Shown piece by piece: positions 8,855-32,703 of a stretch of DNA of 64,000 bases. This DNA comes from Felis catus (taxonomy: Eukaryota), in NCBI RefSeq assembly GCF_018350175.1, contig NC_058371.1, positions 6,944,001-7,008,000 on the forward strand. Reading direction: 5' to 3'. The notes under the pieces are model-generated. The model had not been told where the DNA came from, ran no database searches, and saw only the letters and a program-made list of their open reading frames with translations. Each line of letters starts with the position of its first letter. Positions within the stretch are counted from its first letter, which is position 1. The translations under genes were made by a program, and so were the position numbers.

Positions 8855-9094
8855 CAGTAAAACCTTGGTTTGCGAGCATAATTTGTTCCACAAACAGGCT
8901 TGTCATCCAAAGCACTTGCATATCAAAGCGAATTTCAAGGACCATTGGCTCAGCTGTGATCATGTGACATTGGGCGTCATGTACTACTCGTATTGCAAGA
9001 CCTCACTCGTTTATCAAGTTAAAATTTATTAGAAATATTTGCTCATCTTGTGGAACACTCAGGAACAAGTTACTCGCAATCCAAGGTTTTAGCG
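8855..9094. mobile_element. Tigger/pogo-type MITE
   Basis: 22-nt TIRs cagtaaaaccttggtttgcgag / ctcgcaatccaaggttttagcg; right flank TA, left flank GA. Confidence 0.75.
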
Positions 9095-9198
9095 TAATTG
9101 GATTAGCTGCAGCCACTGGGAACGGTCCAGCCGTGAGGGGACTCAGGAAGTGAAGGCTCAGAGTTTCGGCTGCTGCAAGGACCCGGCGCCACCGGGTT

Positions 9199-9359
9199 TC
9201 AGTACGTCAGAGGAATGGGTCGGTTGGCATTCCGCGTTTTCAGACAGCAGGGGTAGATGTTGGGGCAAGTTCCGATGAAGAATTCCCCTGTTTTACAGCG
9301 CCTCCGGCAGCGGGCGGTCCCATAGCCGCATATCTTGTCTGTGTCAAATTCATTTCTCA
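9199..9359 (-). CDS. DEFB104: DEFB104 exon 2, mature peptide ((V)[52 protein letters not shown]); own exon 1 not found
   Basis: Phase-1 acceptor ttatttag|TG. Spacing C-X6-C-X3-C-X9-C-X5-[12 protein letters not shown] is the DEFB104 signature. It lies between DEFB106 and SPAG11 as in human. Confidence 0.92.
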
Positions 9360-10789
9360 CTAAATAACAGAATAAATCAGTGCGATTATCATGCCTGAAG
9401 ACCAGGAGGCGGGACTTTGGCAGTGGTTTCTGGGGGATAGTGACTGAACTGACTTGAGAGAATACCCTGGAACCCTGGTGGAACAGATTTCCCAAGCCAC
9501 CTCCTCCCTCTGCTCTCCTCGCTGATGGACCCCACCATCTGATTCTCTTCCAGATGAGAAGAGAATTTTAAACATTAAAATTAAACATTAATTGGCTCTT
9601 GTCACATCTCTTCTCAAAATCCCTACAATAAAATCCCTGCTATCACTTTTTGGTTGAATCCAAGCAAGCCCTTTACCATGAGCTTCGAGCAGCGCTGGCC
9701 TCCATTCAGGGCCCAACGCTCTTCTCCCTGGAATACTCCCCCCTCCTCCCACGAATGACCTCCTGGAATCTCCATGTCACAACGTTGGGGGATCTCTCCC
9801 TGTTTTTCCCATGTGCCCAAGCGCCCTGGAAGTTTTTTATTCCTTCACGACATCTTTCCCAAGTTGTAATTACATGATGTTTTCAGTGACTTGGTCTTCC
9901 TGATTGAATTCTAAGTTCCCCAGGTGGGAGACGATGTTCATGTTCCATTCACAAATTACGGGCTCGCCCAGTGCCCAACATGTGCTTAAAAACCAACCAC
10001 CTGTTGAGTGAACGTTGGGACAGAGAGGACGAGCATAAAGCAGAAGCGACATGAGCAGGGGAGAGCAGAACAGACAGAGGAGAGGAGATACCTACCGGGC
10101 TCACTGGGCTGAACCCTGGGACTTTGATTGCAGCTGCTACATGTGAAAAACCTGAAAGTCTCCACTCCCATCCTTAAGGTAAGAAAAACTCTGAACAAAC
10201 TGAAAATCGATGATTTTTCTTGGACCCATCAGAGAACTTAGGTCACAGGGTAAACCACCGCTCCCAAATTTGGAGAGAGTCACAGTGGAGATGGGCTAAC
10301 CTGGGGCAGAAGCCTCTGGAGCCTTAAAAGGGTAGGAACACTGTGGTCATGTTGACAAATTTCCAGAGGATGAGTGAGGGCAAGCCTGAACCAAACAACT
10401 GAGGGCCACAGGGGAAGGGATCCCACTGCTTCCTGGGTTTTAACTCCAGGACGCCCATGAGGTAATCACGGTGAAAAGCCAAGAAGTAATCCCCGGTGGC
10501 CCTGGCAAGGAAAAGGGGAAGTAATTATGTGAAATGTGTCCAGAGAGTTTTCTACAACAAGAGCTGACTCTCCCAGGAAAATGATTTTACTAAAGCTTTA
10601 TCTGGAGGAAGGACACGCCCCCTACACCAGCCCACCCAGCTTCCTCGCTCAAATGAATGGGACACCCTAGGACGTATTTGTGAAGGTCACATTGCAGGGA
10701 CACCAGCCAGGAACAGACTGGTGTTTCCTTCAGTATGGTGGAGTCCTGATCATGAATATTTATTATATACTCATGGATATCTATTTTAT

Positions 10790-11093
10790 ACCAACACTAC
10801 TTAATTTCTTTTTCCCTAAATTAATTCAATTTTTGTGTTCTTTTGGCACACTGTGTCATTGTTTGTTTGAAGTTCTTCCACATGTTCTGGCACTACAAAG
10901 TTGCTCTGGGTTTATCTTGTACGTTCTCTGCTCCAGTCTTAGAAACACCCACTTCTCCAAGGATCCCTGACTCCTTCTGTTGGTGAATGGAATTAAAAAC
11001 CAGTATTTGAGTGCCAGGTGTGCTCATAGTTGCTGGAATGTTCTTGCTTCCAGGACCTCTAAGCTGACAGAGCAAGGACGTACATATTTGTTT

Positions 11094-11146
<53 letters not shown>

Positions 11147-12010
11147 AATAAATATTTGTATATGTAACCATCTGTATGCAAGCCAGGTCTCCACCTGTCA
11201 TCCATCCCCAGGTGGGTCATTCTACCTTTTCCCTGCTTATCTATAAACTCCCTCTCCAAACCTGGCTCCCACATCTGCAAGCCCGGTACTTAATTGTTCA
11301 GTTCTGGCTATAAGTGCATAGCAAGATCTGAATTGCTAAGCTTGTGTTACCTAACAAATACATCATCGGCTAGAGTGCCATGCTCTTGTGCATTGTACTA
11401 GATTATAGACTTCTTTTGTAACTGAGAAGTTACCCAGGCCAGCATTCCCTTCCCCCTGGCCTGCAGGAAAGTTGTTTTATACATTTATGATACAATTAGA
11501 TAGTTCTGCATTTCACCCTGGGGTAGCCCTGACTTCCAATTAACTCTGTTAATTTGCACAGTGAACTTTAGTTCACCCTTTGGGCTGCATGGTTCTCAGG
11601 GTTTAACAAAGGCAGAGAATCATGCAGAAGTTTGATATTCTGCCCTAGCACATTCCCTGTGTTTTACCCCTGGCCAACCCCCTGGCAACCGGGGCAAAAG
11701 ATCACTTCTTTTCACGATCCCTAGTTTTCCCCTTTCCAGAATGCCACATACATGGAATCATGCCGTCTATAACCTTTTTAGACTGGCTTCTTTCACACAG
11801 CAATATGCACTTAAGGTTATTCTGTGTCTTTTGGTGACTTGACAGCTTACCTGTTTTTTATTCCTGAATAATATTCCATTAGTTGGATGAATCACAGTTT
11901 GTTCTCAGCCCACCTACTGAGGGACATCTTGGTTGCTCCTGGTTTGGGGTGATTATAAACAAAGGTGCTATAAACATTCCAGGTAGGAGTTTGTTTGGAC
12001 CTAAGTTTCT
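10790..12010 (-). mobile_element. Old L1M 3' UTR, antisense, containing a (CA)n tract
   Basis: ttttccagaatgccacata..gactggcttctttcac..gctataaacatt. Confidence 0.65.
11098..11145. repeat. (CA)n microsatellite
   Basis: Seen directly. Confidence 0.95.
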
Positions 12011-12016
12011 AATGTT

Positions 12017-13618
12017 TGACAAGGTTGCAACAGTAATCCAATGGAGAAAAGACAGCCTTTTGAACAAATGCTGGAGCAACTGAACACCCACAGCAAAAAC
12101 AGAAATGAGAACAACATTGACCATCTTAACAGCTTTTAGAAAAATTAACTCAAAATGGTTCATGGATTTAAGTGTAACTGTGAAACCATTAAACTTTTAG
12201 AAAAGCACATAGGAGAAAATCATCTAAGACTACACAAAAAGATCTGAGACTTGACTCCCAAAGAAACCATGATCCATAGAAAGAAGCTGGACTTCACAAA
12301 GTTAAAAAAAAATGCTGCTCAAAAGATCTATTAAGAGGTTAAAAATGCAATGTATTTTGGGGGGAAAATATTTGGAAATTGCATATCCAACACATGACCC
12401 ATATCAAGAATATATCAAGGACTCTCAGAGCTCAACAGTGAAAACAAGAAAAAATCCAATTAGAAAATAAGTGTGAGCCATCCATTTCGCTGAAGGTACA
12501 AAGATGGCAAAAACAAAAAACGAAACAAAACAAAAAAAACAAAACCACAGGATAAGGTGTTAAACATCATGAGATTTTAGAGAAAGTCAAACTAAAATGA
12601 CATATAAGCTGTTGATGACAAAAACAAAAAAATCGTGGCAACTTTTTGCAGCAGATGCTAGCTAGGGTGTGGATAAGCTAGGTCACGCTTACATTCCTGG
12701 TGGGAGTGTAAAAACGGTACAGCTACTCTGGGAAACAGTTTGGCATTCTTTTGTAAAAACTAAACCTGCAACCATATGACTTGGCAAGTGCATGTTGGGA
12801 CGCTTGTCTCAGAGTAATGACAAGTTGTGTTTGCTCAAACATCTATAAACGTAAAAGTTTACAACACCTTTACTTGTCATAGTACCAAACTGGAAAGAAC
12901 CCGGCTGTCCTCCAGCAGGTGAAGGGTTCAATGAATCCTGGTACATCCACCCGGTGGACTACGATGCAGGGACAAAAAGGGAAGACCTACTGAGACACGC
13001 ACCAAACATGGAGAGTCTCCAGACCACTACAGTGAGTGAAAAGTCCCCCAGAAGTTACCTACTGTAGGATTCCATTTATTTTATTTTCAAATTCATTTAT
13101 CTTGAGGGACACAGAAAGCGCATGCAAGCAGAGGAGGGGAAGACAGAGAAGGAGAGAGAGAATCCCAAATAGGCTCCTCACTGTCAGTGCAGAGCCTGAA
13201 GCCGGGCTTGAACTCACAAACCGCGAGATCATGACCTGAGCCGAAACTAAGTCGGTCGCTGAACTGATTGAGCCACCCAAGTACTCCTGTAGGATTCCAT
13301 TTATATGACGTTCCTGAAGAACAAGTTGTAGAAGTGAAGAGCAGATAAGTAGTACCCGGAATTAAGGTGGAGGCGGACACAGGAGGGAAGAGGATGTGGC
13401 CCTGAAAGGGCAACATGGCGGGCGTGGGTGGGGGCAGGGATCTCTGTGGTGATGGACTTGTTTTGTATCCGTGTCAGTATCTGGTGTTCGTAGTGTATTG
13501 TCCTCTGGTTGTGCTATTGGGAAAACTGCATTAAACGGTAGAGATGTATCTGTATTGTATTTTACAACTGTGCATGACTTTGTAATTATCTCAAAACAGA
13601 AAAATGTCATAAAAAAAG
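12017..13618 (+). mobile_element. Old L1M ORF2 3' end and 3' UTR
   Basis: FDK...IQWRKDSLLNKCWSN remnant, and 3' end ttttacaactg..gtaattatctcaaaa. Confidence 0.75.
13076..13287 (-). mobile_element. Can-SINE inside L1
   Basis: TSD tgtaggattccattta. Confidence 0.88.
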
Positions 13619-14061
13619 GTTGTTGCTTCAACAGGATTAAGCGCGTTGACCTTGGGGACTCAAGAGGGAAATAAGGCAAGATTTCTGACCCAACAGGGAA
13701 CCAAGGCTGGATCTTAGGCCTGGGGAACATGACCAGGAATCCTTACTTGAACTGGGTAATATGAAAGCTTAGAGTCAGAAAGTGATTTGGCAAATAATAG
13801 AAAGTCATTCGGGGACCTGGATCCAGTAATTGTCTCCAATTAAAGCCATGGAGTCAAGATGATTAACTTATATATGTGTATGACACATGAGAATCCTTAA
13901 TAAGTAAATTTATCTATCTACTTATCCTTAATATGTTCATTTCTCCACTTACCCATTTATCTATCATCTGTCTCAACAGGTGGTTGGGGCTGACTGCCTG
14001 AGGGCAAGTGAGAGGTTTGTTGATGTATAGTCTTTAGCAGTCCCCTTTAAAAAGAAATATC

Positions 14062-14310
14062 GGGGCGCCTGGGTGGCTCAGTCGGTTGGGTGACCGACTT
14101 CAGCTCAGGTCATGATCTCACACTCCGTGAGTTCGAGCCCCGCATCGGGCTCTGTGCTGACAGCTCAGAGCCTGGAGCCTGTTTCAGATTCTGTGTCTCC
14201 CTCTCTCTCTGACCCTCCCCCGTTCATACTCTGTCTCTCTATGTCTCAAAAATAAATAAACGTCGAATAAAAAAAATTTTTTTTAAATAAAAAAATAAAA
14301 AAAATAAATA
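14062..14310 (+). mobile_element. Can-SINE
   Basis: TSD aaaagaaatatc. Confidence 0.92.
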
Positions 14311-14453
14311 AAAAGAAATATCAGATCATTTGGGGAAAGTTCCCTTAGCAAAAAGTTATAGAAAAAGAAGGCAAGTAGGCAGGGACCATCAGGGTTAACT
14401 ACTCACATTTCCTTTCTAAGTGAAGCACTTGACAAACTGATAAAAAATAGTCA

Positions 14454-14465
14454 TTTATTTTTATT
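14454..14465 (-). terminator. DEFB106 poly(A) signals (two tandem AATAAA)
   Basis: tttatttttatt about 90 nt downstream of the stop. Confidence 0.65.
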
Positions 14466-14552
14466 GAGGTGTCTTCTCACTGAAGAGACCAGAGTAAAAA
14501 GAAGACAAAATGAGGTCATTTATGTCACTCTGGAATGCCAGAGCCTTCAGAT

Positions 14553-14704
14553 TCAATCATTTGTGTTCTTCCAACATGGCTGGAGGGTCAGGCAGCATTT
14601 CAGAGACTTCTGGCAGAGAGCAACAAGTTCTTCATTTTTCTGACAAGAATTCACGCACCTCCCTTGAAGCTTGGAGCATTTCTCATCAAAAAACGCGTTC
14701 CTGG
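14553..14704 (-). CDS. DEFB106: DEFB106 exon 2 ((A)RNAFFDEKCSKLQGRCVNSCQKNEELVALCQKSLKCCLTLQPCWKNTND*)
   Basis: Acceptor ccatag|CC. FFDEKC..NEEL.ALCQKSLKCC..QPC matches DEFB106. Not in the supplied ORF track; translated by hand. Confidence 0.95.
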
Positions 14705-16996
14705 CTATGGAAGGCAAGGAGCCACTGGGATTAATTCTCTCACATACATCCAGTTACCAGGTACAGTCTTGTAACTAGTTAGGAAAGATTTCTTTACAAG
14801 CTGCCGTGGTCTCATCCTGCCAGTAGATGAGATGGTAGGGAGATATTTTCTCTCTAATTTTTCTGTCTTTTTATTTTAGGGGATTAACGACCAGGAAGAA
14901 TACGTTTGTCTTGACATTTGGGGTTAGGCTGTGGGGGCTTTGGGAAGCAGAAGCTATTGTTCTTTTATCAGAATCTGTTAGCGGTACGTAATGACCACCT
15001 TGTCCTTGTAAACCCCTCCAGGGCAGGTAACTCCCCAACTCGCTGTCCAAGTGTTACACCCTGAGAATTGAGCAGGTCTGAGGCTGGGGACATGGCCCAC
15101 GATTGGAGTAATAAACAGGGATAAATATATAGAAAGGGAAAAGTTTACTCTTGTGGGTGGAAGGGAAAAGATTGCCTAGAAAGGCTCATCAGATTTCTTT
15201 GCCACATTTCATAAAACGTGTTCAAGGGCCAGTAGGGGCATGTGTTGGGAGTGGTTCCCCAGGACTCCTCTTGTCTATTCTGTGCAGAATATAGTGGCTC
15301 TGGCCTTAGTACTTTATCAGTAGCCGTCCTAAGAGCAGCCCGCTTCAAGTTAAGGAGAGACAGACATCTTACTGGAATCAACATTTTAGATTACCTAATC
15401 CAGGTATATTTAAGGACAGGCATCAGATGTACACAAGTTGAAATTAATGTCGACAAACAAAGGTGACTAATTCACATATATGTAAAACTAAAACCAGGCG
15501 GATTGGTATTAGCATGTGTACTAATCATTTCTAGCATCTGCATATAAGTTCATAAGTATCAAAATCCAGTGTTTCAAAGCTCAGTGAACTTTGGCCCCCA
15601 CTGCAGGGGACAGTACTCTATCCCCCCTCCTAATATTGTAAGGTCATCCCAGGCTGGAGGCACTGGACCTCACTTTTCACAAGGGTCCTTGTATTATATC
15701 CAGTTAACAGTGATGGTCCAGAAAGAGAGAGCCTCTGCAAAGAGAGAGCATCTGTGTCTACAAGGATTCGGATGGATCATCACACACACCCATCTAGAGG
15801 TTAATGTAACTCTGTGTGTGTGTGTGTGTGCGTGTGTGCAAATGCATATTAATAGGTCAGTTCCATTTGCTTATATAGATAATTTTATATTGCCTTATCT
15901 TATATTGTGTTAACTAAATTATATAATAAACCTGACTGATCTGAAAAGGGGGCCTTGGTCAGTTTCCAACGTGTACATCGAGGTCAGTGGAATGAATAGC
16001 TCACCGTAGGTCCTGGATCCCGGTGCACTTGGCACAGAATCGAACCACACAGGCTCACTGCAAAACAGACCAGCAACACATATAGCCGGTGTGAGAATTC
16101 TGAGCCTCCTAAGGAGACATCTATAGCATCTGGCACAATTTGGGCTCGTTGCAGGCTCTGAAAAGCCCTTTCTCTAGCTCTCTGGAAACTGGGATGAGTC
16201 TAGTCTTGGATTTTATTTTGAGGAAGATCTGACTGGAGCCACTAGAGGTTCCTGGGAGCCAGAGAATGTGGCAGGAGTCCTGCTGTGAACTCTCAGGTCC
16301 TGGCTTCATTCTGGCTTATCTGTGTGACTTTGAGAAGCCGCCTAGCCCATCTGAGGCTCAGTTTCTGCATCTGAAAAATATCTATAAAGCACACCTTCCA
16401 AGCCTGAAGTGTTGGTCTGAAATCACTAAATTCGAAATAGGACAGAGTTTCCTTAAAGGTCCTGGCATTGGAGAACCGCATGCATTTTGTGGTGTGAAGT
16501 GTTCGTCACAAGTGCCCAGCTTCATGGTGTTGTGACGAAGGAGCAGCAGTTTGACACGTACGTTGGACCTGCGCCATGGCCGGCGTGAACGCAGTGTCCG
16601 AGCTCCGTCCCTTTCCTCGTCCCTTTTTGCCTTTTTCTGGCTCTCTTTCTTACCTGTCTCATATCTATCACGACTATTTTTTACAAGATCCACAGATGCC
16701 AACCCTAGCTTTTACATTTTTTCCCCAATTTTTTGTTTTTGTTAGTTAGCATGGAGCTGGGGACCAAAGGGCATCTTTCCTGGCATATCTTTGTTTCCTC
16801 AACCCCGTGATACCCCATCTCAGACAATCAGGGAAAATGCAATGGATTCATAGAAGAGACATTAGGGGGGTCACCTCCCATAGTAAATGCTCCCCTGCAG
16901 GGCCACCGGGCTGACCACACCAAGGTGCTCACTGAAGCAGACTCTTTCTCTGGGCCACCACCTCTAGAACCTTCCCTGCAAAGACGTTCATTTTAC

Positions 16997-17045
16997 CTGG
17001 GGCCAGAAGGAAGAGAACAGCAAAGAGAAAGAGGAATGTCCTCAT
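16997..17045 (-). CDS. DEFB106: DEFB106 exon 1 (MRTFLFLFAVLFLLAP-A)
   Basis: ATG at 17045, 16 codons plus 1 nt, donor G|gtaaaa. Nearly identical to the human DEFB106 leader. Confidence 0.95.
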
Positions 17046-17107
17046 GTCTCGAAGGGTCTTGAGAGATCAGCACAGCGTCCATGATAAAAGAGCAGCAAAC
17101 ACCCACA

Positions 17108-17113
17108 TTTATA
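17108..17113 (-). promoter_or_regulatory. DEFB106 TATA box
   Basis: TATAAA on the minus strand 63 nt upstream of the ATG. Confidence 0.65.
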
Positions 17114-18039
17114 CATTTCTCTAGACCAGAGAACATCTTGATCAGCGAGGCATGCCACAAATGAGAACGTTTCCATGCTTTGCCAAGCCGAGCCCACATC
17201 TCAGTGGGTGTCACTCAGCCCGCAGCTCACTGCTTTTCTGACACTGGAAAGTTCCTAAGAAGGACAATGGGGAAGAAGGGAAGACAGAGTAGAGGGTGCC
17301 TTGATGATCAGGGGCAGATATATGCACCAGTAGGAAGAAAGATCTGGAATCTGGCAGTTTGGATTTCTAATCCTGACTATGCTCCTTAATAGCTTTGGTT
17401 CACTCATATGTAAAATCAGAGTAATTACAGAATATCATGATGGAGTCAGTGGGGTCTGAACTCCAGCTCCAATATTTGTGAGCTGTGTACATTCGGCAAG
17501 TGCCTTTACTGAAACATATGTTTTATTGTTTATTTTTTAAAAAGTGCTGATACTTTAAATACTATATACATCATCTTATTTAATCTGCAAACAGCTCCCT
17601 GGATAGTTATGAGCATATGGGATATTTGATATTTGATTAAGACTATAGATACATCAAATATCCATATACTCTGACCACAGGCTGCCACTAATTTGATTAT
17701 CTCTTTTTCCTAATCTGAAGTAAATCAGCTAAGTGGATGGAGAGAAAGGCCTGAATTACCCACTCTAATTCTTCCCTGTTGGGAAATACCCCTCTTTAAT
17801 GTGACATTAGGGAGATGAGCCTCCCTCATCATCATTCTCCCTATTATTATTGCTACTGAAAATTGAAATATCTTAAGATATTATTAAAATAATCACAAAC
17901 TCCCGAAAAGCAACCAAATGCTTGCTGTGTAACTGAAAACATGGTTTGTGAATGTGACCTGGATAAGACTATCAATTTACTTCTTCCTGCCATAGTAATG
18001 TCAATAAATGATTGAACGCACAAGTAACTGTGATAAAAG

Positions 18040-22421: not shown

Positions 22422-22491
22422 ATGACCCTGACCGGGAAGATGTCTTATGTTGTCTTTGCCTTTTTCTTCATTTTCACCCAGTTTCCATCAG
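22422..22491 (+). CDS. DEFB105: DEFB105 exon 1 (MTLTGKMSYVVFAFFFIFTQFPS-G)
   Basis: 23 codons plus 1 nt, donor G|gtaatt. Resembles human MALIRKTFYFLFAMFFILVQLPSG. Confidence 0.92.
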
Positions 22492-25865: not shown

Positions 25866-25993
25866 GTGACTTTGCTGCTTGTGAGCCATGCAGGCTCGGC
25901 CGGGGCAAGTGCAGGAAGATGTGTGCTGAGGATGAGAAGCCTGTTGGACATTGCAAGCTGAACTTTTTCTGTTGCCGACGGAAGGTCAGCTGA
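25866..25993 (+). CDS. DEFB105: DEFB105 exon 3 (GDFAACEPCRLGRGKCRKMCAEDEKPVGHCKLNFFCCRRKVS*)
   Basis: Acceptor cgtag|GT. CxxC-start seven-Cys pattern and LGRGKCRK signature. Confidence 0.95.
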
Positions 25994-32645: not shown

Positions 32646-32703
32646 ATGAGAATCTTTTTCTTAATTTTTGCTGCTCTCATTCTCCTTGCTGGCATTTTCC
32701 CAG
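32646..32703 (+). CDS. DEFB107: DEFB107 exon 1 (MRIFFLIFAALILLAGIFP-A)
   Basis: 19 codons plus 1 nt, donor G|gtaaaa. AALILLA matches the DEFB107 leader. Confidence 0.92.

Follow-up and report, generated by a model that had tools for sequence, protein, structure and literature searches.

An intact DEFB104 exon in the cat is probably an alternative last exon of DEFB106

We analyzed a 64,000-nucleotide stretch of the Felis catus genome (assembly GCF_018350175.1, contig NC_058371.1, positions 6,944,001 to 7,008,000), hereafter the window, which carries the β-defensin genes DEFB106 and DEFB104 on its minus strand; all coordinates below count from its first letter. DEFB104 exon 2 has no recognizable first exon of its own and is probably an alternative last exon of DEFB106, with which it would share a promoter and a signal-peptide exon. 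Transcription would start from the DEFB106 promoter, where a TATAAA box, likely common to both products, reads 17113-17108 on the minus strand (17108..17113). Splicing to 14704 and cleavage after a tandem AATAAA would generate DEFB106. Skipping DEFB106 exon 2 together with its poly(A) site, splicing 16997 to 9359, and cleaving after 9025 would instead generate DEFB104 with the DEFB106 signal peptide, a product that would be secreted in the male tract.

The coding part of DEFB104 exon 2, the distal last exon (9199..9359, minus strand), follows an AG acceptor at 9361-9360 and reads 9359-9199 as an open frame of 53 residues with all six Cys in place (six-Cys motif at 9330-9244). It scores 31.9 bits against Pfam PF13841 (cut-off 22.2), is single copy in a search of the whole 2.43 Gb genome, and has an observed/expected CpG ratio of 0.90 versus 0.32 in the adjacent intron. 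The first-pass annotation had described the exon as intact, with retained CpGs, and the data agree on both counts. The best protein matches of 9359-9199 are DEFB104 models, at 56–98% identity, and a Felis catus gene model matches exactly both this exon and 10079-10032. DEFB104 sits between DEFB106 and SPAG11B, in agreement with human and cattle coordinates. By sequence and position, 9359-9199 is a six-Cys β-defensin exon orthologous to DEFB104. An AATAAA at 9025..9030 (minus strand) is its likely poly(A) signal. The segment 8942-9061, which includes the 3′ end of the exon and this hexamer, is repeat-like, with many short diverged contigs in all four sequencing runs described below, and the AATAAA may derive from a dispersed repeat.

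Upstream of this exon, the interval 9360..14400 (minus strand) contains no DEFB104-type leader in our leader scans. Scanning 9360-14550 for an ATG, a hydrophobic segment, and a phase-1 donor returned only microsatellite- or repeat-derived matches with poor donors. A position-specific scoring matrix (PSSM) built from 25 canonical DEFB104 leaders reached at best −3.5 bits on the minus strand and −7.8 bits on the plus strand over 9360-14550, as compared to 33.7–59.2 bits for held-out true leaders and −10.2 to 8.7 bits for 16 control tiles. Half-length PSSM scans of the same interval, which has zero N, revealed nothing with a donor. Searching the window by tblastn with rhino, squirrel, cattle, and bat DEFB104 leaders gave low-complexity matches only; translated upstream extensions of camel, hippo, and degu models had no match in 9000-17500, a search of low power; and a rhino protein matched exon 2 alone in the whole genome, again with low power for a 19-residue leader. 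The first-pass claim that this gap-free interval lacks a leader with a phase-1 donor thus holds, and the cat appears to lack a canonical two-exon DEFB104 gene, in which a separate promoter and a leader exon of 19 codons precede exon 2.

From 9360 to the end of the window, the minus strand offers a single leader-like phase-1 exon with a consensus donor, DEFB106 exon 1. Its coding part (16997..17045, minus strand) encodes a signal peptide and is the likely shared leader. It reads 17045-16997 for 49 nt (16 codons plus 1 nt), ending in phase 1 before a donor GT at 16996-16995. The exon is single copy in the genome, and puma and felid DEFB106 models open with the identical 16 residues. Joining its last base to DEFB104 exon 2 keeps the frame, and the sequence confirms the in-frame, same-strand splice from 16997 to 9359 that the first-pass annotation had pointed out. 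The proximal last exon, DEFB106 exon 2, has its coding part at 14553..14704 (minus strand), with a six-Cys motif at 14678-14592, and is followed by the tandem AATAAA (14454..14465, minus strand; hexamers from 14465 and 14459). The two acceptors are equally rich in pyrimidines (14/20 each). One signal exon therefore lies upstream of two defensin exons on the same strand, in compatible phases, each equipped with an acceptor and a poly(A) signal. A duplicated DEFB106 leader near DEFB104 exon 2 is rejected in the cat, where the leader is single copy; such a duplication is possible in bats, where Myotis lucifugus leaders differ at 1/16 residues. The true exon 1 is missing from the RefSeq DEFB106 models of four felids (cat, leopard cat, clouded leopard, and leopard), and the cheetah model runs into the intron; in those felid annotations another gene model may have taken up the DEFB106 leader.

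Sequencing data place DEFB104 exon 2 in spliced RNA. We used four runs from four studies (the run search listed 24), placed on 8900-11850 only, and read the contig graph of one of them, run X7, assuming 31-letter words. A contig of X7 spans 8942-9359 at a depth of 412 and stops exactly at the acceptor, with an intron depth of 58–74, so that the exon is covered ~7 times as deeply as the intron. A GT..AG joint, 9359>9874, is present at a depth of 18.4 and marks a minor cryptic donor (9872..9874, minus strand). The intronic contig begins at 9332, which implies a further branch after two shared letters and thus a partner exon ending in A/C/G-A-G. This partner is absent from 9362-11086, a span over which X7 would have shown the joint; DEFB106 exon 1, whose last letters are CAG, is compatible. 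From the depth of bin 9296-9394 we calculate roughly 500–1000 at the acceptor boundary versus 58 unspliced, and the same arithmetic reproduces another bin (86 versus 87.9). The acceptor of DEFB104 exon 2 is used in RNA in this run, and the data imply a major partner for it, an upstream exon that lies outside 9362-11086 and ends in AG. Although its contigs total only 119 million letters, X7 also contains a 0.85 share of the words of 9000-17200, which fits continuous transcription better than DNA carry-over. The other runs (X1, X2, and X9) cover exon and intron evenly, are DNA-like, and are uninformative on splicing; over 9012-11086 their depth is 15–65, with contig sets of 131–522 million letters and no exon enrichment. 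Positions 11177-11850 have no cover in any run and count as no evidence.

Database models from other mammals point the same way. We classed 79 DEFB104-body models from protein and cluster searches by their N-terminus, setting aside two window translations and a three-part Myotis brandtii model (XP_005861802.1) that strings a leader, a DEFB106 body, and a DEFB104 body in one frame. None of the 17 carnivore models (13 species) has a canonical leader; two are of the DEFB106 type (dog and badger), 13 have an unrelated N-terminus, and two have none. Of the 62 non-carnivore models, 32 are canonical, seven are DEFB106-type (five from vesper bats, one from a beaked whale, one from a mole-rat), 19 have another N-terminus, and four have none. 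The dog entry 'beta-defensin 104' (AAY59711.1 / Q30KU9) opens with a leader identical to that of dog DEFB106 at 16/16 residues and continues into the DEFB104 body, and the badger leader matches mustelid DEFB106 leaders at 14–15/16. The dog entry reportedly goes back to Patil et al. 2005. Among the unrelated N-termini, a panda model matches cat 11351-11310 and a wolverine model cat 13687-13661; the interval is therefore common to cat and caniforms. The arrangement looks Carnivora-wide, neither recent nor cat-specific, a pattern that the first-pass annotation had missed together with the fusion already implicit in the dog GenBank entry. The three-part Myotis brandtii model suggests that in vesper bats, too, no leader separates DEFB106 from a DEFB104 exon 2 downstream of it.

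The distances within the locus are consistent with loss of the DEFB104 first exon by deletion. From the DEFB106 stop to the DEFB104 stop, human measures 12.2 kb, cattle 6851–7061 nt, and cat 5.35 kb, or 4868 nt without two carnivore-type SINEs (short interspersed elements), one of 261 nt with a 14-nt target-site duplication (14048..14322) and one of 225 nt with an 18-nt duplication (13062..13304). Both elements substantiate the SINE content noted in the first pass; other parts of the interval are putatively L1 and L2. The cat–cattle difference approximates the cattle intergenic gap plus exon 1, from which we infer that a deletion of about 2 kb took the DEFB104 promoter and exon 1 before the cat–dog split. 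The first-pass annotation had drawn attention to a good donor just past the DEFB106 poly(A) site. This GTGAGT is present (14401..14406, minus strand; 14406-14401 as read), and the shared-leader model does not need it. The SINE-corrected distance from GT 14406 to the acceptor is 4561 nt, close to the human intron (4553–4556 nt) and to about 4.7 kb in cattle, and by this length argument the site may be the old start of the DEFB104 intron left by the deletion, a reading weakened by its being one of three GTRAGT sites in the interval and by the drift of intron lengths. As the end of a coding exon, the 14406 donor is rejected, since the open frame upstream has no in-frame ATG. A scan of metagenomes for outgroup DNA gave two loci, both chance matches in bacterial-looking DNA.

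How the two genes came to be joined admits a more speculative account. The DEFB106-leader-to-DEFB104 splice could be an old, latent placental isoform that made the DEFB104 promoter and first exon dispensable; their independent loss in Carnivora and in vesper bats would then have turned two genes into a single unit. This account draws on cattle, beaked-whale, and mole-rat models that use the DEFB106 leader though their relatives keep their own, and we regard it as possible though doubtful. Cattle RefSeq XP_010824348.1, with a span of 10.3 kb, carries a DEFB106-type leader, according to the consulted part of the PMC6098084 supplement; another cattle model has its own DEFB104 leader, and separate DEFB104 and DEFB106 genes are described for cattle in the accessible portion of PMC11521603. 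Such DEFB106-leader models may arise from real cross-splicing or from stitching by prediction programs.

Among the rival explanations, the likeliest holds that a new, cryptic first exon in the repeat-rich interval supplies most of the splicing into exon 2, giving a non-coding or leaderless RNA. The joint 9874>9359 is one such event, and consensus-like donors ending in A/C/G-A-G also occur at 12867, 11850, 11225, and 11194, in the part without cover; a joint from upstream of 11850 could not show. No hydrophobic in-frame leader precedes any of these donors, and the minor exon ending at 9874 is itself rejected as a new leader, with a stop 12 codons upstream and no in-frame ATG. A non-coding RNA would moreover leave the protein-level constraint described below unexplained, and we consider this explanation improbable.

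It is less likely still that DEFB104 is a pseudogene relic in carnivores, its RNA a leaky DEFB106 read-through whose spliced product has no function. PMC6098084 scores DEFB104 as lost in panda, several carnivore groups have no DEFB104 model, and exon 2 is less conserved between cat and dog than DEFB106 exon 2 (30/40 versus 34/40 identical). Against this, databases hold an intact panda DEFB104 exon, and in X7 the exon has ~7 times the intron depth. We also compared 12 carnivore species with 26 outgroup models, using annotated open frames only. All 12 carnivores keep the open frame, and the six Cys are invariant among them; columns conserved in the outgroups vary in carnivores at 4/21 positions, as opposed to 14/18 of the other columns (Fisher p = 3.6e-4; Spearman −0.55). 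Exon 2 is constrained across carnivores, and its canonical leader is absent from 17/17 carnivore models; the 'very recent pseudogene' offered as an alternative in the first pass finds no support in these results.

The last explanation, that DEFB104 has a first exon so diverged or displaced that it was missed, or that the assembly lacks it, draws on the difficulty of detecting short leaders, and of finding 19 residues by a genome-wide rhino search in particular, and is very improbable given an interval free of N, full and half-length PSSM scores at background, a single contig over about 9020-11086 in each of the three DNA-like runs, an equally short DEFB106–SPAG11B distance in panda (7.6 versus 7.8 kb in cat), and no such exon in any carnivore model.

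Several observations weigh against a leader shared with DEFB106. The 16997>9359 junction itself is not displayed, as the run data end at 11850, and the share of X7 records running on unlike the stretch is 0. Splicing is seen in 1/4 runs only, and the RNA label of X7 is a guess. AG is a common exon end, which the four rival donors share. Fusion models in the databases, the dog entry included, may be homology-stitched predictions; the protein-search matches include no fused model from cat or another felid, and no DEFB104 model from seals, hyena, otters, ferret, or pangolin, animals whose DEFB106 did match. The constraint test takes annotated open frames only, and its species are kin rather than independent. 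Finally, cat, tiger, and lion have Asn at 9354-9352, the second full codon of exon 2, where nine other carnivores and 25/26 outgroup models have Ser. This position presumably corresponds to −1 of the human signal cleavage site, and Asn there may weaken signal cleavage. The borrowing of the DEFB106 leader proposed in the first-pass annotation is partly supported, by the splicing of exon 2 and by the dog and badger models.

The window contains further defensin elements. Six-Cys motifs from the motif scan lie at 1992-1903 (minus strand, SPAG11-like) and 25889-25975 (plus strand, DEFB105-like); the SPAG11 and DEFB105 names are tentative and follow gene order. A SPAG11B-like first exon (6768-6711) and last exon (1992-1890), both on the minus strand, appear intact, as do a DEFB105-like leader (22422-22490) and body (25880-25975) on the plus strand. 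Another leader-like phase-1 exon, which we take to be of the DEFB107 type, lies at 32646-32703 on the plus strand. Motif and hidden Markov model scans identified no matching Cys exon downstream of it within the window; it may be a second orphan exon, or else its partner may be too diverged or sit past the end of the window.

If DEFB104 exon 2 is indeed a last exon of DEFB106, cats, dogs, bears, and mustelids have kept a DEFB104 peptide, under DEFB106 control, and gene-loss tallies and current annotations would be wrong (13/17 carnivore models have unrelated N-termini). The locus would then offer a datable case in which two genes turned into a single one with alternative splicing. Were the splice an old latent isoform, the DEFB104 'losses' of carnivores would be annotation errors, and the merger by promoter loss could be traced. 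Exon sharing is already known in β-defensins, which makes the gain moderate. We found no paper describing it for DEFB104 and DEFB106: our survey, made mostly from listings and with subscription literature outside its scope, returned no published statement of it, and the accessible part of a bat defensin paper (PMC10562630) mentions neither gene.

The closest published relatives are DEFB110 and DEFB119, a nearer precedent than the SPAG11 locus invoked in the first-pass annotation, which had missed them. Alternative 3′ (last) exons of DEFB110 and DEFB119 have a signal peptide in common, as PMC4494069 describes, and PMC11521603 calls DEFB110.1/.2 alternative transcripts. The cat unit would have the same architecture, a shared signal-peptide exon with a Cys-rich exon picked by alternative 3′ splicing; unlike those conserved paralogous loci, it appears to have merged two genes that human and cattle keep apart, through lineage-specific loss of a first exon. 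SPAG11 stands as a precedent in being, according to PMC1524968, a read-through fusion of two ancestral β-defensin genes into one transcription unit. As proposed for the cat unit, this neighboring locus joins two defensin genes by read-through; SPAG11 keeps its A and B promoters, whereas cat DEFB104 seems to have none of its own and would depend wholly on the upstream promoter. Rare (<0.3%) chimeric mouse α-defensin mRNAs, reported in PMC11840258, link exons from two defensin genes within a single transcript, as the cat unit would; they are by-products of two complete genes, whereas the cat chimera would be the sole coding route to DEFB104. Dog beta-defensin 104 is the orthologous gene and, like the cat product proposed here, combines the DEFB106 leader with the DEFB104 body; it is filed as an ordinary gene, in contrast to our shared-leader reading of the cat locus.

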